Origin: Patescibacteria group bacterium
GTDB lineage: Bacteria; Patescibacteriota; Minisyncoccia; Phycocordibacterales; JACZSL01
Length of the DNA stretch: 64,000 bases
Assembly (NCBI GenBank): GCA_022574205.1
Contig: JACZSL010000001.1
Coordinates: 5,447-69,446, forward strand
Direction of reading: 5' to 3'
Shown: positions 3,239-63,739 of the stretch, piece by piece
How the letters are laid out: each line of letters begins with the position of its first letter
Position numbering within the stretch: position 1 is the stretch's first letter
Made by a program: the position numbers and the translations under genes
Notes under the pieces: model-generated
Seen by the model: the letters and a program-made list of their open reading frames with translations, nothing else
Database searches by the model: none
Told to the model about the DNA's origin: nothing

Positions 3239-3820
3239 ATGGAAATAAGGAGTTTTATTGTGAATAATTGGAAAAAACTTTCCAGCGGCGTTCTCGGCGT
3301 CTTTGTTGTAATTGGACTTTTGTGTGCAATTACGGGCTGTGGAGGCGGAGGTGTTGATACACCACCACCACTTTCATCGCCACCTCCAGTTGACTCCGGT
3401 TTGCCTCCGGATCCCGGAGAAGCAGGTCTCGTAGGTCTTCTCGGTGTTGACTCAGATAACGATGGTGTGCGTGATGACATTCAACGATACATTGCTCTCA
3501 CTTATCCTGATTCTGAAAAGACGCAAGCTGCGTTGACGGAGTTTACCAAAGGTATGCAAGAAGAGTTGGTTAATGCTGAGGACAAGGAATTGTCGATCGA
3601 GATTGCCATCAAAGGCAATATGATGATTTCCTGTATTAAGTACATTAATCCTGAGAATGGTTCGAGGATTTGGAGGGAACTTCGTGCAGAGATCTTAAAT
3701 ACTGAAGAGAGGTCTCGTGCATACATACAATACAACGATCAACTTGGAGGGGAGGTCTTTAGTCTCTTCCCCAGAGCTGCCAGTTCTTGTGGTTTTGACG
3801 TAGATTCACTTCCAAACTAA
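3239..3820 (+). CDS. lipoprotein (signal peptide + lipobox ..LCAITGC, then GGGGVDTPPP linker)
   Basis: Hydrophobic N-terminus ending in Cys, then a Gly/Pro-rich linker. It lies 18 nt upstream of the hydrolase gene. Confidence 0.6.
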   Translation: MEIRSFIVNNWKKLSSGVLGVFVVIGLLCAITGCGGGGVDTPPPLSSPPPVDSGLPPDPGEAGLVGLLGVDSDNDGVRDDIQRYIALTYPDSEKTQAALTEFTKGMQEELVNAEDKELSIEIAIKGNMMISCIKYINPENGSRIWRELRAEILNTEERSRAYIQYNDQLGGEVFSLFPRAASSCGFDVDSLPN

Positions 3821-3837
3821 TCTGAAGGAGACGAAAA

Positions 3838-5115
3838 GTGAACAGAATATATCTTGTACTGCTTGCAGTGCTTTTCGCGGTTGTTCCATTTACTGTTGCC
3901 GCTCAGGGCGTTTGTGAAGTCAGAGAGGTGAGTACTGTTGTGGTGTTTGGCAATGGAATTAACACTCCCGAAAAAGATGCTTACGACTTACTTGAGGTAT
4001 TAGAAAAACGTTTAGAGGCAAAACTGCCAGCTGATAAGTTTGAGGGGCTGGAGTTTAACATCGCCTACAATCGCACTGCGGGAATCCTGCTTGACCTCTT
4101 GGAAGCTGCAAAAGACAAGTATCTAATCGATGCAACCAGAGAAATCAGAGATTTCTCAATTGCTTTCTGGAGAGCTCTTGGATACTTGGATATTCTTCCG
4201 GATTGGTTTCAGGAGGCCGCATTGGAATCTGCTGAAAGTCTTACCAGTGCTTCGCTTGTAAACGACAGGGATTTGAGCAACCATTTGGCTCTCTATCGTT
4301 CGAGCATACTTGAAGGCAAAACCGTGCTTTTGGTCGCTCATTCTCAAGGCAATTTCTTTGCCAACAGAGCGTATGAAATTCTCTATGAGGGCTCAAATCC
4401 GATAACAACACAAAGCTTCGGCATAGTGTCAGTCGCAAATCCGTCAAGTTTTGTCGGAGGAAACGGCCCTTATTGGACACTTCATGAAGATGAGGTGATT
4501 AAGAGCGTTGCAAGATGGTCCGCAAGGTTTCTACAACCACCTCCTCTTGTTTCTAACATCGGTAACGACCCAAATGCAGAGCATGATTCATTGACCCACG
4601 GTTTTGTGACATCATATCTTGTAAGAGGAACTAATAGTGAAGAGAAGATTCTCGCTGGCATCGAGACGAGTATTGGGATGCTTGAAATTCCGTTTCCTGT
4701 TGCAGAAGACGGCATTATCACTGTAACGCTTACATGGGGAGTAGAGCCTGACGTTGACCTGCACGTGTTTGAACCAAACGGAACACATGTCTACTATGCC
4801 AATCGATTCGGAATTTCCGGATTTCTGGACGTGGACGATGTTACGTCGTTTGGCCCGGAGCATTACTTTGTCGGGTGCGACACTCTGGAAGAAGGTATGT
4901 ACCGGATTGGTGTCAACTACTTCAGAGGCTTCAATCCTGAAGTTGCACTCGTGCAAATACAGGCAGGCTTTATCATACGAAGCTTTGAGACTCCGCTTGA
5001 AACAGCTGTCGGCTCTTCGGGCAATAACTCACCGATTCTTGTCGCTGATGTTATTGTCGGCATAAACGCCGACGGCGTCTACGAGTTTAGTATAATGTCC
5101 CTTGGTGTTCAGTAG
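3838..5115 (+). CDS. secreted alpha/beta-hydrolase (lipase/esterase/cutinase-like nucleophile elbow AHSQG) with C-terminal beta-sandwich (pre-peptidase C-terminal-like) domain
   Basis: Signal peptide MNRIYLVLLAVLFAVVPFTVAAQG. The nucleophile elbow is LVAHSQGNF. The C-terminal segment TLTWG.EPDVDLHVFEPNG is PPC-like. Confidence 0.6.
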   Translation: MNRIYLVLLAVLFAVVPFTVAAQGVCEVREVSTVVVFGNGINTPEKDAYDLLEVLEKRLEAKLPADKFEGLEFNIAYNRTAGILLDLLEAAKDKYLIDATREIRDFSIAFWRALGYLDILPDWFQEAALESAESLTSASLVNDRDLSNHLALYRSSILEGKTVLLVAHSQGNFFANRAYEILYEGSNPITTQSFGIVSVANPSSFVGGNGPYWTLHEDEVIKSVARWSARFLQPPPLVSNIGNDPNAEHDSLTHGFVTSYLVRGTNSEEKILAGIETSIGMLEIPFPVAEDGIITVTLTWGVEPDVDLHVFEPNGTHVYYANRFGISGFLDVDDVTSFGPEHYFVGCDTLEEGMYRIGVNYFRGFNPEVALVQIQAGFIIRSFETPLETAVGSSGNNSPILVADVIVGINADGVYEFSIMSLGVQ

Positions 5116-5170
5116 CAAATAACCTTAAGTAAAACTTTCCGTAAGAGGATAACTTATATAATTATATAAA

Positions 5171-5205
5171 CCCCACCTGCGCAAGCGCGGGTGGGGGTTT
5201 TTGTT
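5171..5205. terminator. bidirectional hairpin ccccacctgcgc-aa-gcgcgggtgggg + T-run
   Basis: Perfect GC stem followed by tttttg. It sits between the hydrolase gene (+) and a small minus-strand ORF. Confidence 0.6.
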
Positions 5206-5218
5206 TCGCACCGAGAAC

Positions 5219-5368
5219 TTAATTCTCTTTGTTGTGCTTCACAGGAGAAAAAGTGGCCGAGTTGCGGTGAGACCAGGTTTGCGTCTGCGGGTCGTATTGA
5301 CCCCGAACAGCACCTGAGATCTTCGATAGCAACTGTAGCGCCACGGGTTTTGTGGGCTTGTTCAACAT
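5219..5368 (-). CDS. possible small ORF (49 aa, MLNKPTKPVALQLLSKISGAVRGQYDPQTQTWSHRNSATFSPVKHNKEN)
   Basis: GAGGA lies 8 nt upstream of the ATG, and the ORF ends at the shared terminator. It is divergent from the ATP-grasp gene and has no recognisable family. Confidence 0.2.
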   Translation of the reverse strand: MLNKPTKPVALQLLSKISGAVRGQYDPQTQTWSHRNSATFSPVKHNKEN

Positions 5369-5547
5369 GAGAATATCCTCAAAGTCAGTTTAGAAAGAAC
5401 AAACCAAACGTTGTTGTACACAACAAAAACATCTGGACCCATGAAGTGTGACATAATTTATAGTTTCTATCAATATGTTGACATATTGATATTTTATAGT
5501 ATTTTGTAACTAGATCATTATGTTTACAGCTTAGAGGAGTAGCAGCA

Positions 5548-6489
5548 ATGACTATCTTCATAATCACCCATCAGGCAGGATTTGAGGTTGATCCAGTTAT
5601 TGACAGATTAAAAAGTCTCAAACTTCCTTTTGTTCGCTTTAATCAGGACGATGGCGACAATATTTCTAAAGTCGGATTTCTTCGGTCAGATAGCAAGGAA
5701 AATATCTTTTGGACTAGCGACAATAAATCAGTTTCTTTAACCAATGTTGGTTGCGCGTGGTTTCAACAACCCCCGCCATTCACTGGGCAACCGGATAATT
5801 TTGAACAGGCTGTACAAAGAAACAATTTAATAGCATTTCTTGAAGCCACGTTTGACTTTTTGCCAGTAAAATGGCTTAACAGGGTAGCAAACGCGCGTCG
5901 AGCGGCAAATAAAGTTTTGCAGCTACACCTTGCTCCCTCAGTAGGATTAGCAGTTCCGAATACATGTATTTCAAATGACCCACTTACAGTACGCTCGTTT
6001 TGTTCCAAGGGACCGAGTATTGTTAAAAATCTCAATTCCTCATGGATAGCACAGGAGAATGATGCCGTCGTGTCCTCCACAAAGTTCGTGCAAGATGACT
6101 ACATAAAAGATGACCAAGCAATTATATTCTGCCCTCTCATATATCAACAATTCATTGAGAGAAGATATGATTACCGTGTAGTTATACTGGGAGACGCAAC
6201 GTTTGTATCTCGGTGTGATTCAACACTTGGTGATCCCGCAGATGTACGCGTTGACAACAAAACGGGAGCTAACTTCTACCGGGATAAAATACCTCCTGAA
6301 TATATTGAAAAGCTCAAAAATCTAATGGAGATCTTGGGTGTCGACTACTGTTCTGCAGACTTCATTGAGGACCGCGGAGGCAAAATCTTCTTTTTGGAAA
6401 TGAATATCTGCGGTGCCTGGTGGTGGATGGATGAACTCCATGGGGGTGAAATACTTGATTCTTTCGTGAAATACCTGACAACTCGATGA
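5548..6489 (+). CDS. ATP-grasp ligase, RimK/MdnC-like (RiPP/graspetide-maturase type)
   Basis: The N-terminus TIFIITHQAGFEVDPVIDRL and C-terminal FFLEMNICGAWWW resemble the ATP-grasp peptide maturase fold (E-x-N...W). Confidence 0.55.
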   Translation: MTIFIITHQAGFEVDPVIDRLKSLKLPFVRFNQDDGDNISKVGFLRSDSKENIFWTSDNKSVSLTNVGCAWFQQPPPFTGQPDNFEQAVQRNNLIAFLEATFDFLPVKWLNRVANARRAANKVLQLHLAPSVGLAVPNTCISNDPLTVRSFCSKGPSIVKNLNSSWIAQENDAVVSSTKFVQDDYIKDDQAIIFCPLIYQQFIERRYDYRVVILGDATFVSRCDSTLGDPADVRVDNKTGANFYRDKIPPEYIEKLKNLMEILGVDYCSADFIEDRGGKIFFLEMNICGAWWWMDELHGGEILDSFVKYLTTR

Positions 6490-6571
6490 GCCATCAAGAT
6501 GTGTTATCAGCGGTGGTGTGTACACTTCACATCACCGCTATTTTTTAACATATTAAATATTAAAGCAACCT

Positions 6572-7090
6572 ATGAAACTGCGAGAACAACTGGATAAAAT
6601 AATACATATTAACAAAGGTGAAAATTGGTGGAAGCCAAGGTTATTTAAAGATATAACACTCCCACAGCTTCCGAAAGAATTAAAGATTCTTGAATTTCCA
6701 CCTCTCAAAAACAATAATTACAACTGTTTTATTCATACACTCGGTCTCTCCAAGGATGTTGGAATTATAAAAAATAGTGGCGGTTTTATTTATGACACTT
6801 TTTTCCAAAAATTGATTGATAAAAAGGCGCTTATCCCTACAGACCATCCCAAAAACGGAGACTATATTTTATACAGAGACTCCCAAAATTATCCCGACAA
6901 AATCACCCATTCAGGTGTTCTTGACAATGGGAAAGTGGTGTCAAAGTGGGCGTGGGGACCACTTTTGTGCCATGACGTTTTTGATGTTCCCGCGTCTTAT
7001 GGAGACGAGATTTCTTACATAAAGGCAGTCGATCATAAAAAAGCACGGGATCTCTACTGGAAGTATAAAAAGTTTAATAAACTTCCATAG
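6572..7090 (+). CDS. papain-fold (NlpC/P60- or CHAP-like) Cys/His hydrolase candidate
   Basis: Candidate Cys sits in NCFIHTLG. Downstream, GDYILYR....ITHSGVLDNG resembles the GD..ff....HvgIy His motif. Confidence 0.35.
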   Translation: MKLREQLDKIIHINKGENWWKPRLFKDITLPQLPKELKILEFPPLKNNNYNCFIHTLGLSKDVGIIKNSGGFIYDTFFQKLIDKKALIPTDHPKNGDYILYRDSQNYPDKITHSGVLDNGKVVSKWAWGPLLCHDVFDVPASYGDEISYIKAVDHKKARDLYWKYKKFNKLP

Positions 7091-7433
7091 AAGAGTATTA
7101 CGACACACGAGGCTCAACATTGGGTGTATCGGGTGTGGCTTTTCGTTACTCTTTTTCCGTGTTTAGATGCTGTGTATTAACAATGGGGAAATATGCTAGT
7201 ATGGTATAAGGAAAAGTGTAATTATAATTAACACTTGTATGGCGAAAGGTAGAAATCATCAAAAAAGAGAGAAAAAGAAGCCGAAGAAGAGTAAGAAGCC
7301 TCATATTTTCTAACGCTTGTTTTATATTTGCTCGTGGCGTAACCACCACTGTGTGAGAATACCCCCGATCTCTATCGGGGGCACCTTTTATAAAAATTTG
7401 CATTGTTGAATACTGATAGTTAAACTGAACAAA

Positions 7434-8351
7434 GTGACTACCATAGAACAATTAAAAAAGAGTAAAAATATATATGACATTAAGGCGGTTAAACTGACCA
7501 GCTGTATTGGTTTGCTAAAGAAAAGATGTACATCTGAAGTTTTGCGTGAAATAACTAAAAATTCACGATTAATTAATGTTTATGACATTACGTATCGCTC
7601 ACAAGGACATAAAGTTAAAGGTTTTATTGTCGAGCTAAAAAAACTAAAAGGGAAGTTACCATGCATTATTTATAATCGTGGCGGGTCGGGAGAATTTTGC
7701 GCAATTAAAATCGGGGAAACATTTCTGCGGTTGGGTAGGTTTGCCAAATGGGGATACATAGTTATAGCTTCACAATATTCTGGAAACGCGGGAAGTGAAG
7801 GTAAGGATGAAGTTGGCGGAAGTGATATTGAAGACGTTTTAAATCTTAAAAAGATATTAAAAAACCATCTGCACGCTGATGAAAAAAGAATCGGTATGTT
7901 TGGTATTAGTCGTGGAGGGATGATGACATATTTATCTCTTGCGAGAGTAAAGTGGCTAAAAGCAGCTGTATCGATTGCAGGACCAACAAATTTTAAGCGT
8001 GAAGAAAAGTTGAGGCCAGATATGAAGCGGAGGAACAAAATGTTCTTTGGGGGAAGTAAAAAGGCGCTTAGAGATCGTTCTGCCGTTTATTGGACTGATA
8101 AATTTACCAAGAAAACACCACTTCTCATGCTTCATGGCACTGCGGACTGGCGCGTAAGTCCGTTGGATTCGTTGGATTTGGCAGAAAAGCTTTATGAAAA
8201 TAAGGTCCCGTATCGCTTAATTATGTACGAAGGTGCAGATCATGGATTAAGTGAAGTTCGTGAAGAGGCAATGCTAGAGGTCAGAAAATGGTTTGATAAA
8301 TATCTAAAAAATAACGGAAAATTACCTGATTTAAAACCACACGGCAAATAG
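7434..8351 (+). CDS. S9-family (prolyl oligopeptidase/acylaminoacyl peptidase-like) alpha/beta serine hydrolase
   Basis: The nucleophile motif is GMFGISRGG. LMLHGTADWRV and EGADHGL form the Asp/His part of the triad region. Confidence 0.65.
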   Translation: MTTIEQLKKSKNIYDIKAVKLTSCIGLLKKRCTSEVLREITKNSRLINVYDITYRSQGHKVKGFIVELKKLKGKLPCIIYNRGGSGEFCAIKIGETFLRLGRFAKWGYIVIASQYSGNAGSEGKDEVGGSDIEDVLNLKKILKNHLHADEKRIGMFGISRGGMMTYLSLARVKWLKAAVSIAGPTNFKREEKLRPDMKRRNKMFFGGSKKALRDRSAVYWTDKFTKKTPLLMLHGTADWRVSPLDSLDLAEKLYENKVPYRLIMYEGADHGLSEVREEAMLEVRKWFDKYLKNNGKLPDLKPHGK

Positions 8352-58352: not shown

Positions 58353-59366
58353 TTATCTTTTCGCAATAATACTCTTTTTGTATAGATCCAAATGATTGAG
58401 TGCTACACCAGTTCCTTTTGCAACACAGCTCTGCGCGTCTTTTGAAAGAATGGCTTTCACTCCGGTTCGTCTAAATACAAGCTCTGGTAGGTGGCGAAGC
58501 TGTGACAAACCACCCGTCATGATAATACCGCGGTCAATAATGTCTGCAGAAAGTTCTGGAGGTGTTTCCTGTAGTACGCTACGGATTGCTTTAATCATTT
58601 CTCGAAGTTCTCTATTGATAGCCCGAACAATCTCGTTTGTTTTAATCTCTGTTGTGCGTGGTAATCCTGTTATATAATCACGCCCCTTAATAAGCATTGA
58701 GAGCTCCTCTTCAATAGGCACCGCGGCACCGATTTGTATTTTTACTTCTTCTGCCGTTTTATCGCCAATCGCAAGATTGTGCGTTTTTTTCACATAATCG
58801 ATAATTGCCTGATCAATTCTGTTGCCTGCACATTTCACACTTGTTGACACAACAATGCCTCCAAGTGATATGACCGCAACATCAATAGTTCCACCCCCAA
58901 TGTCAACTATCATGTGTCCGTGTGCTTCCTGAATGGGGATGCCTGCTCCAATAGCCGCGAGAATCGGTTCTTTGATGACGTATGCATTCTTGGCTCCTGC
59001 TTTTATGGTAGCTTCAATAACCGCACGCTTTTCTGTTGAGGTAACACCAGCGGGGACAGACACCATCACATCTGGTTTAAAAATATTCCATTTTCCCAGA
59101 ACCTTCTTTATGTAATGACGAAGCATTATCTCCGTCATACGATAATCAGCAATCACACCGTCACGCATTGGTCGATAAGCCACAATTGTTTCAGGAGTGC
59201 GTCCGATCATCTCTTTTGCTTCGGTACCAATTGCAAGTATTGTATTTTCCTCTTCAGAGACTGCCACAACAGAAGGTTCATTCAAGACAACCCCTCGACC
59301 TGGAAGATATACGAGTATGTATGTAGTACCAAGATCAATTCCGAGTTTTTTACTAAATAATGCCAT
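58353..59366 (-). CDS. mreB: rod shape-determining protein MreB
   Basis: Actin-fold motifs IDLGTT and DIGGGT. Confidence 0.85.
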   Translation of the reverse strand: MALFSKKLGIDLGTTYILVYLPGRGVVLNEPSVVAVSEEENTILAIGTEAKEMIGRTPETIVAYRPMRDGVIADYRMTEIMLRHYIKKVLGKWNIFKPDVMVSVPAGVTSTEKRAVIEATIKAGAKNAYVIKEPILAAIGAGIPIQEAHGHMIVDIGGGTIDVAVISLGGIVVSTSVKCAGNRIDQAIIDYVKKTHNLAIGDKTAEEVKIQIGAAVPIEEELSMLIKGRDYITGLPRTTEIKTNEIVRAINRELREMIKAIRSVLQETPPELSADIIDRGIIMTGGLSQLRHLPELVFRRTGVKAILSKDAQSCVAKGTGVALNHLDLYKKSIIAKR

Positions 59367-59527
59367 GTTTGAGACTATGCTTTGAGCAAAGAAAATCGTG
59401 TATATATGTAACCATAATTATCAGCGTGAATGGTTCATATTTTCAATCCCTATATAGTATCGTATAAACCGCATGTTGCAATGATGCGAATCCGTCCACT
59501 ATATAGCATATATGCTATACTTCATTA

Positions 59528-61048
59528 ATGAAAAATCGATTGGAACACATAGGCCCTATTATTGCAAAGATTCGCGAGGATAAAGAGATGACTCAAAAAG
59601 TACTAGCGAAAAAAATCATGACAACTCAATCCGCCGTAGCACGCATGGAAAAAGGTGAACAGAATTTGACTACAGAAATGCTCGCCCGTATTGGTCGTGC
59701 TTTAAAAGCGGAGATTTTGAGTGTTTCTTCAGGAAAAATGAACCTGAAAATCAAAGGTGGGGAAAAACTTCATGGTAAAATACGGGTAAATACATCAAAA
59801 AACGGAGCAATGGGTCTTCTTTCGGCTTCTCTTTTAAATAGAGGAACAACGGTTCTAAAAAATGTGCCAAATATTGAGGAAGTGAACCGAATCGTCGAAG
59901 TATTAAAGAGTATTGGAGTACGTGTAAAACGCTCGCGTGGAAATATTGAAATAATTCCGCCAAAGAAATTTACATTTTCTAAGTTGGACAAAAAAGCTGC
60001 TGGGCAGACACGTAGCATAATTATGTTCATTGGACCTCTAGTACATAGCCTTAAAACGTTCACTCTACCAAACACCGGTGGGTGCGAATTGGGGGTTCGA
60101 AGTATTCGACCTCACCACTATGCTCTAGAAAAACTTGGAGTAGTTATAGAAACGAGGCAGAATGATTTTGTGGTGCGCCATAAGGGACTTAAAAAGAACC
60201 AGGAAATTATTCTATACGAAGCCGGTGATACAGTAACTCAAAACGTGCTGATGGCCGCAAGTCTTATACCAACAACAACAACTATCAAATACGCCTCAGC
60301 AAACTATCAGGTTCAGGAATTATGTTTTTTCCTCGAAAAACTTGGAGTAAAAATAGGTGGTGTTGGCACTTCTACGCTTGTTGTTTCGGGGGTCTCAACC
60401 ATAAACAAACATATGGAGTACGAGATAAGCGAGGATCCAACAGACGCAATGTTTTTTTTGGCAGCAGCAATCATGACAAAAAGTTCTATAATAATTGAAA
60501 GATGTCCTATAGAGTTTCTTGAGATAGAGCTTTTAACTTTGGAAAAAATGGGCTTTAAATATAGTAAGAGTAAACCCTACCTCTCACGTAATGGTAGAAC
60601 TAAATTAGTTGATATTAAAACACAAAGCTCAAATCTTTTCGCACCTCCAGAAAAAATTCATCCTCTTCCCTACCCTGGATTAAATATAGACAATCTTCCA
60701 TTTTTTGCTGCAATAGCAACGATCGCAAAAGGTCAAACATTGATTCACGATTGGGTCTACGATAAGCGTGCGCTTTATTATACAGAGCTAGATAAGCTTG
60801 GGGCGAGTACTGTTCTTGCTGACCCGCATCGCCTATACATTACAGGACCAACCAAATTAAGAGCCACGGAGCTTGTGTGTCCGCCCGCGCTTCGCCCCGC
60901 TACCATACTGCTCATATGCATGCTTGCGGCTGAAGGAACCTCGGTTTTGCGCGACGTTTACAGCATTAATCGTGGATACGAGAATTTGACAAAGAGGCTT
61001 AATTCTATTGGGGCTGAAATAAGTATCATACGTGATTTTACATACTAG
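59528..61048 (+). CDS. murA: UDP-N-acetylglucosamine 1-carboxyvinyltransferase with N-terminal XRE-type HTH extension (about 65 aa)
   Basis: The MurA core starts at MNLKIKGGEKLHGKIRV and the active-site Cys sits in NTGGCELG. It is preceded in-frame by the HTH QKVLAKKIMTTQSAVARMEKGEQNLTTEMLARIGRAL. Confidence 0.8.
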   Translation: MKNRLEHIGPIIAKIREDKEMTQKVLAKKIMTTQSAVARMEKGEQNLTTEMLARIGRALKAEILSVSSGKMNLKIKGGEKLHGKIRVNTSKNGAMGLLSASLLNRGTTVLKNVPNIEEVNRIVEVLKSIGVRVKRSRGNIEIIPPKKFTFSKLDKKAAGQTRSIIMFIGPLVHSLKTFTLPNTGGCELGVRSIRPHHYALEKLGVVIETRQNDFVVRHKGLKKNQEIILYEAGDTVTQNVLMAASLIPTTTTIKYASANYQVQELCFFLEKLGVKIGGVGTSTLVVSGVSTINKHMEYEISEDPTDAMFFLAAAIMTKSSIIIERCPIEFLEIELLTLEKMGFKYSKSKPYLSRNGRTKLVDIKTQSSNLFAPPEKIHPLPYPGLNIDNLPFFAAIATIAKGQTLIHDWVYDKRALYYTELDKLGASTVLADPHRLYITGPTKLRATELVCPPALRPATILLICMLAAEGTSVLRDVYSINRGYENLTKRLNSIGAEISIIRDFTY

Positions 61049-61066: not shown

Positions 61067-61870
61067 ATGGCAATGGAAACATTCGGAAATAAATGGGGGC
61101 TTGCGGTCGTGATCCTCCTTATAGCAACCGGTACAGTTTGGCTTTTTGGAGCGAGCGGTTTTCGAATCGGAGAAGGTTTCCTCCTTGTGCGCACTGGCTC
61201 AGTGGAGCTACAATATGTTTTGCCAGAAGCCGTCGTATTCTTAAACGATGAAGAAAGGAGGGGTAAGAAAAACCTAGATGGTAGTTTTTCTATTAAAAAC
61301 ATAGAACCGGGAACATATACAATAATGGTTGCCAAAGAAGATCATTGGCCTTGGATCAAAAAAATTAATTTGAGCGAGCAGCAAGTACTTGTACTGCATC
61401 CATTTACCATTTCAAAAAGTCCAAAGGTGACGAAAGTTTCCGAGGATGACGAACTATACCTTACTTCCATATCTAGTATTAAGCTAGAATTACTACCGAC
61501 AATGCAGTCGAAAAAAACCTCAATAGATGGCTTAACCGCGATATGGCTAGAAGACAATGCAGTAATGATTGAGTGGCTTGGAGACCTTGAAGATCTTCCG
61601 TCTATTTTCTGCAGTACGAGCAACACTTGTGATCAACAGATTATTGTATATTCTGGTACTGACACTGTAAGTAGTATAGATTTCTATCTAAATCAGACTG
61701 ATGTTTTGCTCATAGCTTCAGGTAATAAACTTATCGTTGTTGATGTTGACTCAAAAAATGTTCAAAATATTCAACCACTATACGAAGGCACTGAACCTGT
61801 TTTTAAAGTTATGGAAGGAGAGACTCTATATATTCTTGACGCAGGAGAACTCTACGTTATGACACTTTAA
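61067..61870 (+). CDS. membrane-anchored PEGA-domain protein
   Basis: N-terminal TM. GSFSIKNIEPGTYTIMVAKEDHWPW is PEGA-like. Confidence 0.45.
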   Translation: MAMETFGNKWGLAVVILLIATGTVWLFGASGFRIGEGFLLVRTGSVELQYVLPEAVVFLNDEERRGKKNLDGSFSIKNIEPGTYTIMVAKEDHWPWIKKINLSEQQVLVLHPFTISKSPKVTKVSEDDELYLTSISSIKLELLPTMQSKKTSIDGLTAIWLEDNAVMIEWLGDLEDLPSIFCSTSNTCDQQIIVYSGTDTVSSIDFYLNQTDVLLIASGNKLIVVDVDSKNVQNIQPLYEGTEPVFKVMEGETLYILDAGELYVMTL

Positions 61871-61882
61871 ACGCTTTTCTTT

Positions 61883-63739
61883 ATGAACCTCGTGCACGTC
61901 ATCCCGATAGCAAGAGGTATTGCTCGTAATCGACTTTCCTACTTTACATCAAAGAATGTTGTGAAAGGTAGCCTTGTATCCGTTCCTTTGAGAAACAAGG
62001 TGGTGCCTGCTCTTGTCATTCAAGTTGAGGATCTTAGATTTGCACGTAGCCAACTTCGTAAAGCTAAATACGCAGTCAAAAAGATAGTGGTGCTAAAAAA
62101 TAGAAGCGTATTGTCTGATGCATATCTAAAAGCCGCAGAAAGCACGGCTATTTATACAGCTTCTTCGGTCGGAGCGGTGTTTTATGCTTTAATTCCAAAG
62201 GTGTTCCTAGACAATATAGACGCTATGCCAGCACTGAAAAACCCGAGGTTAAAAAAGGGCACACGCACAACATATATCATTGAAGCTCCGCGATTAGAGC
62301 GTGTAGCACAATACGCTAAGCAAATAAAGTTAGAGCTTAAGTTAAATAAATCAGTTTATATATGTGTTTCAACAAGAGAAGAAGCCCAGCGTATTGGGTG
62401 CGAGTTAGCTTTTCTAAATGAGCGAATTTTTGTTTTTCATGGTTTTATACCAAGAAAGGAGTTGGTGTCGCGCATGGAAGCCATGTTACAAGAAAAGAGG
62501 GCGGTTGTTATTGTTGGCACAGGAAACTTTTTAGCTTTGCCAAGGACTGACATTGGTACAATCATAATTGAAAGAGAGTCATCCGGAGCCTACAAAAAGC
62601 GCTCTAGACCATTTGTTGATATTAGAGTATTTGCTACATACCTATCTAAATACTCAGGCGCGCGCTTAATCATTGGTGATGATGCGTTGCGTATTGAAAC
62701 AATGTACGGATTGACTTACGATCAAAAAGTTAAACGGAGATCAAATATGCCCAGTCAGTTTCCAAAGAAAAAAGTCGTAGACATGCGGAAATATAAAGGT
62801 AAGACGTTTAAGGTGTTGAGCCTTGAGCTTGAAAAACTTTTGATGGAAGCTTCTGGCCACGTCTTTCTATTTACTGCTACTCGCGGTGTATCATCGAATA
62901 CGATATGCGAAGATTGCGGTGAGGTTGTCTTGTGTCAAAATTGTGAGGCTCCAGCCGTATTGCACAAAGGAACACCTGAAAATATATTTGTCTGCCATAA
63001 CTGTGGGGAGTCCAGGAGTGCTAAAGAACGTTGCAGAACGTGTAATAGTTGGAAGCTAAAGCCAATAGGTGTTGGAATTGAGCGTGTAGTTGATGAAGTT
63101 AAAAAAAATGTTGGAGACGTTAGTGTGTTTGTTATAAGTAGCGACCACACAAAAACCCATAGCCGAATCAAAAAGGAAATGAAATCTTTTATGGAATCTG
63201 AGGGTGGTATTCTCATTGGTACTGAAATGGCCCTAAACTATTTAGAGGAAAGAGTGGACTTCGTGGCTGTCGTTTCTATTGACGCTCTTTTGTCTGTGCC
63301 GGATCCAAAAATCTTTGAGCGTGTATATACACTTTTACTTGCACTTATCTCTAATGCAAAAAAAACATTTCTATTGCAGACAAGACAACCGGAGTTGAGC
63401 CTTATACAGCAGGCTTTAGATGGTTATACAAAACAATTTTATAAAGATGAACTGGAGGAGAGAAAGCGTTTTGGTTACCCTCCATTTACTGTACTAATTA
63501 AAGTCAGTGTTTCCGGCACACGCTTGTGGGTTGCTGCAAAAATGGAGGAAATAAAAAAACAACTTGAAGACTATGACTTTCGGATTTATCCTGCATTTGG
63601 GCGCACAAAGCGTGACTATGTACTAAATGCGCTGATTCGTGTCTCAAAAAAATCATGGCCAAATACCAAGTTAATTGAGCTTTTAAGGAGCCTGCCTCCA
63701 AACGTTATGATAGATGTTGAACCAGAAAGCGTGCTTTAA
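61883..63739 (+). CDS. priA: primosomal protein N' (PriA)-like with degenerate helicase motifs
   Basis: 3' DNA-binding N-terminus and the Cys4-Cys4 zinc region (CEDCGEVVLCQNCE...CHNCGESR). Walker A and DExH appear to be replaced (IIEAPRLER / IIIERESS). Confidence 0.6.
   Translation: MNLVHVIPIARGIARNRLSYFTSKNVVKGSLVSVPLRNKVVPALVIQVEDLRFARSQLRKAKYAVKKIVVLKNRSVLSDAYLKAAESTAIYTASSVGAVFYALIPKVFLDNIDAMPALKNPRLKKGTRTTYIIEAPRLERVAQYAKQIKLELKLNKSVYICVSTREEAQRIGCELAFLNERIFVFHGFIPRKELVSRMEAMLQEKRAVVIVGTGNFLALPRTDIGTIIIERESSGAYKKRSRPFVDIRVFATYLSKYSGARLIIGDDALRIETMYGLTYDQKVKRRSNMPSQFPKKKVVDMRKYKGKTFKVLSLELEKLLMEASGHVFLFTATRGVSSNTICEDCGEVVLCQNCEAPAVLHKGTPENIFVCHNCGESRSAKERCRTCNSWKLKPIGVGIERVVDEVKKNVGDVSVFVISSDHTKTHSRIKKEMKSFMESEGGILIGTEMALNYLEERVDFVAVVSIDALLSVPDPKIFERVYTLLLALISNAKKTFLLQTRQPELSLIQQALDGYTKQFYKDELEERKRFGYPPFTVLIKVSVSGTRLWVAAKMEEIKKQLEDYDFRIYPAFGRTKRDYVLNALIRVSKKSWPNTKLIELLRSLPPNVMIDVEPESVL

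Follow-up and report, generated by a model that had tools for sequence, protein, structure and literature searches.

A MurA subfamily fused to a helix–turn–helix domain, with a conserved palindrome at its own promoter

The stretch of Patescibacteria DNA analyzed here (64,000 nucleotides; contig JACZSL010000001.1 of assembly GCA_022574205.1, positions 5,447 to 69,446), referred to below as the window, contains a gene at 59528–61048 on the forward strand in which an XRE-type helix–turn–helix (HTH) domain is joined in frame to the cell-wall enzyme MurA. A perfect 18-nt palindrome, TATAGCATATATGCTATA, lies 8 nt before the ATG of this gene (59502–59519, not assigned to a strand) and overlaps the predicted −10 element. 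We consider it likely that the product is bifunctional, a MurA enzyme that is also an autorepressor (a 'trigger enzyme') acting through the palindrome at its own promoter. As judged by sequence features, a single polypeptide combines an intact enzyme domain with an intact DNA-binding domain and, in silico, a putative cognate operator is found at the promoter of a gene from the enzyme's own pathway, as expected of a trigger enzyme.

The gene is one uninterrupted open reading frame (ORF) of 506 aa that begins with ATG and includes the stop codon within 59528–61048; an identical protein from a Patescibacteria group bacterium is deposited as GenBank MCH8888863.1. An earlier note, made from the sequence alone, had described an HTH at the start of this ORF that reads through into a canonical-type MurA with its active-site cysteine, and both parts of the description hold. 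Pfam HTH_3 (PF01381) matches residues 12–60 (E = 6e-10; 39.4 bits against a gathering cutoff of 23), and the peptide quoted for the HTH (QKVLAKK...IGRAL) is located at residues 23–59. No stop or frameshift separates the domains, and Pfam EPSP_synthase (PF00275) matches residues 76–490 (E = 3e-47), with the peptide MNLKIKGGEKLHG at residues 71–83 and the motif NTGGCELG at residues 182–189; within this motif, the codon of Cys186 occupies nucleotides 60083–60085. From these matches, the predicted structure and the conserved residues described below, we place the XRE/Cro-C1-type HTH domain at residues 8–59 (59549–59704), its predicted recognition helix at residues 34–41 (59627–59650), a flexible interdomain linker at residues 60–70 (59705–59737) and the MurA (UDP-N-acetylglucosamine, or UDP-GlcNAc, enolpyruvyl transferase) domain at residues 71–506 (59738–61045), all on the forward strand.

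The NCBIfam MurA subfamily model NF006873 matches residues 72–501 with 317.4 bits (cutoff 297). The TIGR01072 MurA equivalog scores 298.6 bits and so does not reach its cutoff of 392.7, which places the protein in a divergent MurA subfamily. The E.coli MurA residues K22, N23, R91, C115, R120, D305, R371 and R397 correspond to K91, N92, R162, C186, R191, D388, R414 and R482 of the window protein, and all eight of these catalytic and substrate-binding positions are invariant in an alignment of 116 homologs. Equally invariant in the 116 sequences are T33, Q34, S35, A38, R39, E41, G43, Q45 and N46, in the recognition helix and the turn that follows it, and the HTH matches the enzyme domain in conservation in alignments of both 27 and 116 sequences. 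The HTH also matches, weakly, the NCBIfam HTH domains of HipB, RstR, PezA and HigA. No second murA or other MurA homolog was found within the 64-kb window.

An AlphaFold2 (AF2) model of the fusion, built on the 116-sequence alignment, has a mean predicted local distance difference test score (pLDDT) of 88 and a predicted template-modeling score of 0.82. HTH helices are predicted at residues 8–18, 23–29, 34–41 and 49–59 (pLDDT 77–91), whereas the linker at residues 60–70 has a pLDDT of ∼53, falling below 50 at residues 65–68, and no secondary structure; it is also the most variable stretch of the homolog alignment. The MurA body is predicted with confidence except for the Cys loop (residues 186–190). 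Comparison of the model with MurA structures in the PDB using Foldseek gives target-normalized template-modeling (TM) scores of 0.86–0.93, and both Pfam and the AF2/Foldseek comparison indicate the two-domain inside-out α/β fold of the EPSP-synthase/MurA family. No chain in the PDB spans both domains, as each sequence match begins at about residue 70. The earlier note had asked whether a predicted structure would show the HTH packing separately; in the model, an independent helical HTH is predicted on a low-confidence linker.

In much of Patescibacteria, fusion to the HTH appears to be how this MurA subfamily normally occurs. In a cluster search of 5.8 billion proteins, all full-length proteins of the 120 best clusters considered (62–98% identity) are ∼500 aa long and contain HTH_3 and EPSP_synthase, the sole exception being a fragment. 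In a scan of one genome per species, at least 583 relatives have subfamily-specific peptides, and 78 of the best 80 loci, which were analyzed, are fused from about residue 1–8 onward. Fused loci come from Kaiser-, Nomura-, Taylor-, Doudna-, Uhr- and Kerfeldbacteria, from Saccharibacteria and, among the best 80, from 23 high-GC Actinomycetota loci, with Nocardioides, Aeromicrobium and Knoellia among their sources. The fusion is also present in isolate genomes of Nocardioides, Aeromicrobium, Knoellia, Pimelobacter and Nonomuraea, with Pimelobacter simplex and Nocardioides aromaticivorans among the carriers in RefSeq. The earlier note had pointed to related genomes as the place to look for the same fusion, but its description of the fusion as uncommon does not stand: the architecture is standard in this subfamily and already in public databases, where RefSeq labels the actinobacterial fusions MurA or 'helix-turn-helix domain-containing protein'. 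Full-text literature searches gave no description of an HTH–MurA fusion; one domain survey does pair PF00275 with HTH_3, which it calls 'promiscuous', but does not analyze the combination (PMC9394408).

These results also dispose of the proposal, made in the same note, that a small regulator gene was mis-joined to murA. We regard an assembly or sequencing artefact of this kind as virtually impossible. Near-identical copies (≥90% identity) are found in nine cluster members from other assemblies, so that the ORF is present, identical or nearly so, in 10 independent assemblies in all, and the architecture of all full-length top matches recurs in hundreds of independent assemblies as well as in the isolate genomes. 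Two separate genes, one for the HTH and one for MurA, occur in no homolog; in the three unfused relatives examined, the HTH was simply lost. In addition, only 19 of 81 homologs have a codon that could start translation at the position of the internal Met71, and no Shine–Dalgarno sequence is conserved there. Because most homologs have no start codon at the domain junction, the enzyme cannot be made without the HTH there, which argues against an artefact and, on the same count, leads us to reject a separate MurA initiated at Met71 as a conserved feature. In the window (59725–59740), the ATG of Met71 (59738) has AGGAAAA before it, and an HTH-less MurA produced by internal initiation at Met71 is possible in this organism.

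The palindrome upstream of the gene is widely shared. Of 79 related loci, 75 have a site with at most four mismatches ahead of the fusion gene, in genomes of 32–73% GC, and two of the four loci without one are contigs that end just upstream of the gene. Whereas the window's clade has the variant TATAGCATATATGCTATA, Doudnabacteria, Saccharibacteria and others have TATATCATATATGATATA, and Actinomycetota have TATCTCATATATGAGATA, often with the ending ...GAGTTA. In 47 of 77 upstream regions there is an 18-mer in which 8 or all 9 of the pairs are palindromic, versus 4% of control 160-nt windows from the same loci. The site is also specific to this gene in the DNA scanned. Of 58 sites with at most two mismatches in 671 kb of locus DNA, 57 are located within 200 nt upstream of a fusion gene and the 58th is 260 nt upstream of one; no such sites that might define a regulon occur elsewhere in these 671 kb. 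In the window, TATAGCATATATGCTATA is the only zero-mismatch site, and further copies are limited to chance-level matches with three mismatches. The upstream region matches no Rfam family at E ≤ 1.

Several database gene models (P0002, P0004, P0005, P0038, P0063 and P0098) start too far upstream and consequently have spurious N-terminal extensions, in which operator DNA is read as protein (...IAYMLY... or ...YSIYAIL...). It was these overlong N-termini that first revealed the conserved upstream DNA. A lone copy of the left half-site, TATAGTAT within CTATATAGTAT, lies in the mreB–murA intergenic region of the window at 59453–59460, 49 nt upstream of the operator, and could be either an auxiliary half-site or a chance occurrence.

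The position of the palindrome relative to the start codon suggests how it would act. Its right half reads TGnTATAcT, which in the window gives a predicted extended −10 element, TGcTATACT (59513–59521, forward strand), with the hexamer TATACT at 59516–59521. Loci of the window's clade have TATAcT as this hexamer, and those of Actinomycetota have TAccGT (TAnnnT); outside the palindrome, a single base is conserved across loci, the T that ends the −10 element. The ATG of the window begins exactly 7 nt after its hexamer, a spacing that suggests a leaderless mRNA with its predicted transcription start at the A of this codon (59528, forward strand). A start codon is located at most 14 nt after the operator in 56 of 70 loci, most commonly 8–12 nt, and no Shine–Dalgarno-like sequence is present in the 70 loci inspected. 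The window therefore has the arrangement of a leaderless gene, a −10 element 6–10 nt before the start codon and no Shine–Dalgarno sequence, and the transcript is probably leaderless with its −10 element inside the right operator half. A site that overlaps the −10 element is in the classic position for a repressor. The conserved palindrome on the gene's own −10 element, in the window as at the related loci, lends support to the autoregulation that the earlier note had suggested.

Lineages that have lost the HTH provide a further view of the two operator halves. Three unfused relatives, two with the synteny of the window (L031 and L079) and a third at L088 (= P0122), have neither the HTH nor a separate HTH gene. 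Their operators are half decayed (L031, ∼1200–1250; L079, ∼3950–4000; L088, ∼255–295): the right half, which bears the −10 element, is kept with 0–1 mismatch of 9, and the left half has 3–5 mismatches of 9. These losses can be viewed as natural deletion experiments that would link the left half-site to the HTH.

To find remoter fused relatives, we searched 1.84 billion cluster representatives and recovered fused proteins down to 32–41% identity (P0125, P0130, P0136, P0146, P0149 and P0182). In these proteins, the HTH helix (TSQSA..QN) is kept whereas C115, R91 and R120 are gone, and we refer to them as the catalytically dead sister clade. Three of the six genes (P0125, P0130 and P0136) are divergent from an unfused canonical murA whose product keeps K22, N23, R91, C115, R120, D305 and R397 and is 25–30% identical to the window protein. 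This canonical murA is followed by murB in loci L082 and L090, and in L089 it is located downstream of a mur-ligase gene within the same divergent unit; ddl and/or a mur-ligase gene lies downstream of the sister-clade fused gene. The short divergent intergenic region of L082 (locus at 3624–8082) contains the operator ATATATCATATATGATAT after a perfect TTGACA (operator at ∼4969–4986), that of L089 (95–6201) has the same operator core (∼3483–3500) and that of L090 (2504–7791) has the operator TATAACATATATGCTATAct (∼4974–4991). An operator is likewise present in L086. In L085 there is only a weak operator-like site, ahead of an NTP_transferase–pseudoMurA gene pair, and no clear palindrome was found upstream in L081 (the P0146 locus). 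Because the sister clade keeps both HTH and operator amid Mur genes, the module would act there as a Mur-gene regulator, and the clade has the look of a former enzyme now dedicated to regulating genes for peptidoglycan precursors. By contrast, retention of the catalytic residues in the window's clade suggests that the protein is needed there as an enzyme. In L085 (4268–6554), the pseudo-MurA fusion P0149 begins 4 nt after the NTP_transferase gene, which is sugar-nucleotidyltransferase-like.

The Actinomycetota copies are 68–69% identical to the Saccharibacteria copies and 50–58% identical to those of other Patescibacteria, and in a midpoint-rooted neighbor-joining tree the Actinomycetota and Saccharibacteria copies are sister groups. 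Here, 23 high-GC loci (L045–L077) were compared with L037–L039, L048, L057 and L065, together with L091 from Nonomuraea. Actinomycetota and Saccharibacteria copies also have the operator in common, and this pattern suggests that the gene has moved horizontally between these epibionts and the phylum to which their hosts belong. The 11.85-Mb chromosome of Nonomuraea gerenzanensis (NZ_LT559118.1, filed as a 'plasmid' in PLSDB) has a Cys-type fused gene (L091, 4001–5521) with the operator CATCTCATATGTGAGATA and two more MurA-family matches, one of them canonical and unfused with Asp replacing Cys115 (L093, 1501–2781). Since this genome also has a canonical MurA, the fusion is an extra paralog there. 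No cell-wall-specific context was seen in the actinobacterial neighborhoods examined (L053 and L087), and the hand-picked neighboring ORFs of L053, a high-GC Nocardioides locus, mostly have no Pfam match. In L087 (9595–10986), from a Nonomuraea-type genome, a phage-integrase-family gene and a small XRE gene directly follow the fused gene, which hints that this locus may be mobile.

In the mechanism that we favor, a single polypeptide would serve as a working MurA and as the repressor of its own gene's transcription, with the N-terminal XRE HTH tethered to the enzyme through a linker of ∼10 residues. Two molecules of the fusion would each set an HTH domain on one half of the 18-bp palindrome. 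At high protein levels, the operator would be occupied, RNA polymerase excluded and murA transcription reduced, and this one-protein negative feedback would keep the level of MurA steady. We infer both the binding of the HTH to this DNA and the negative sign of the regulation from the sequence and position of the site. More speculatively, the MurA ligands UDP-GlcNAc, phosphoenolpyruvate and UDP-N-acetylmuramic acid (UDP-MurNAc) might modulate DNA binding.

Several observations weigh against an enzyme that represses its own gene. The palindrome calls for two HTH domains, of which a single chain supplies only one, and MurA is usually regarded as monomeric. There is no conserved −35 element across the loci, in 12 of 70 loci no suitable start codon is reached within 30 nt of the site, and L049 has no recognizable site. 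Symmetric substitutions in the two palindrome halves would preserve an RNA hairpin equally well. Operator type does track the recognition helix, which speaks for the model: TATAG-type operators are found with helices that start xTQS, and TATAT and TATCT types with TSQS. This correlation coincides with one deep split of the tree, however, and may reflect a single event and not repeated co-evolution; the pairing thus fits co-evolution without adding independent support for it. Finally, the N.gerenzanensis genome has a canonical, Asp-type MurA in addition to the fused gene.

An alternative would be a protein that is essentially a transcription factor, its MurA fold serving as a ligand sensor or oligomerization module while the real MurA is encoded elsewhere. 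The sister clade, with its HTH and dead MurA beside a canonical murA, and the coexistence of both genes in Nonomuraea fit such a role, and a second murA could lie outside a window of only 64 kb. For the window's clade, we nevertheless think it improbable: the eight catalytic and substrate residues are invariant in its 116 sequences and have decayed in the clade with a demonstrable canonical MurA, the unfused orthologs at the mreB–murA–priA position are plain MurA enzymes of the same subfamily, and the NF006873 score exceeds the curated cutoff. It is likewise unlikely that the palindrome is something other than the target of the HTH, such as a hairpin formed by the 5′ end of the mRNA, a site for some other regulator or an unusual promoter, with the HTH doing a different job (as a nucleoid tether, at other targets or in protein contacts). 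Symmetric half-site substitutions are also expected of an RNA stem, and in 12 of 70 loci the start codon and the site are more than 30 nt apart. However, the sequence itself is conserved, beyond pairing, from 32% to 73% GC, its right half is the −10 element at the spacing expected for a leaderless start, Rfam gives no match and the site is unique to the fusion gene in the DNA scanned. The half that is not part of the promoter has been lost exactly where the HTH was lost, three times, and in the pseudo-enzyme clade, where the gene context differs, site and HTH have both been kept.

If the HTH does bind the operator, the result need not be simple autorepression: the protein could activate the gene or switch it in response to a ligand, for example if MurA, on binding UDP-GlcNAc, phosphoenolpyruvate or UDP-MurNAc, loosened or tightened repression. 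Among known enzyme–repressors, BirA and PutA respond to ligand or state. MurA makes large open/closed movements and binds UDP-MurNAc tightly (PDB 3swd, 3su9 and 3swg). Overlap with the −10 element is what a repressor would show, however, and through a linker that is predicted to be flexible it is not obvious how the ligand state would be transmitted; we consider such an outcome very unlikely. A broader proposal builds on autorepression by the enzyme and is possible, although on balance we find it doubtful. Here, occupancy or conformation of the MurA domain would tune HTH–operator binding, so that a ligand-responsive enzyme–repressor senses precursor flux and sets murA transcription, a minimal feedback for tiny genomes; the same module would have given rise to the pseudo-enzyme regulator of canonical mur operons and would have passed between Saccharibacteria and the phylum to which their known hosts belong, Actinomycetota.

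The neighbors of the gene in the window are mreB, which is divergent (58353–59366, reverse strand), a 267-aa ORF without Pfam assignment (61067–61870, forward strand) and priA (61883–63739, forward strand). The order mreB(−)/HTH-murA(+)/priA(+) is found in 29 loci that belong to one clade only, whereas all clades have the operator at murA. Since it stays with murA where synteny differs, mreB is unlikely to be the target of the regulation, and we treat it as context and not as part of the unit.

MurA carries out the first committed step of peptidoglycan precursor synthesis and is the target of fosfomycin, and how its level is controlled is an active question. To our knowledge, MurA is controlled by UDP-MurNAc feedback or, in Firmicutes, by regulated proteolysis, and not by a built-in DNA-binding domain; transcriptional control by the HTH would, if correct, be a third solution beside these two. 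Patescibacteria have very few transcription factors, and almost none of their regulation is known from experiment. The HTH and its palindrome would be among the first sequence-defined transcription factor–operator pairs for the group, and would come with evidence for leaderless promoters. The dead sister clade, positioned between mur operons, may offer a case of an enzyme turning into a regulator of its pathway. The hypothesis is directly testable, because cultured carriers of the module exist in Nocardioides, Pimelobacter simplex, Aeromicrobium, Knoellia and Nonomuraea.

Compared with canonical MurA from E.coli and E.cloacae (PDB 1uae and 3swd), the window protein has the same fold (TM ∼0.9), the same eight residues and, in the model, a flexible Cys loop. 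It differs in being only ∼24–28% identical to the solved MurAs, in scoring below the TIGR01072 cutoff and in bearing an N-terminal DNA-binding domain that is found in no solved MurA chain. As a regulator, it invites comparison with BirA, which is both biotin ligase and bio repressor, with PutA, both proline dehydrogenase and put repressor, and with NadR, likewise an enzyme–repressor. The proposed HTH–MurA would resemble all three in having an N-terminal DNA-binding domain on a metabolic enzyme and a palindromic operator on a promoter of the same pathway, and would resemble PutA in regulating its own gene. The DNA-binding folds are different, however, with a winged HTH in BirA and a ribbon–helix–helix in PutA, whereas HTH–MurA has an XRE HTH and belongs to the peptidoglycan pathway. 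Unlike the targets of these proteins, that of HTH–MurA appears to be only its own promoter within the sequence searched.

With XRE autorepressors such as the phage 434 and P22 repressors, SinR and HipB-type antitoxins, HTH–MurA has in common the HTH_3 domain and a 14–18-bp palindrome over its own −10 element. Those proteins dimerize through small C-terminal domains or partner proteins, whereas the C-terminal part of HTH–MurA is a 436-aa housekeeping enzyme. Regulators of the BzdR type (PRK08154), in which an XRE HTH is joined to a shikimate-kinase-like sensor, offer a second example of an HTH combined with an enzyme fold, and the HTH of the window protein matches them weakly (E = 2e-5). The EPSP-synthase/MurA fold is unrelated to shikimate kinase, and the window protein, unlike these regulators, keeps every catalytic residue; the likeness to BzdR is closest for the dead HTH–pseudoMurA sister clade.

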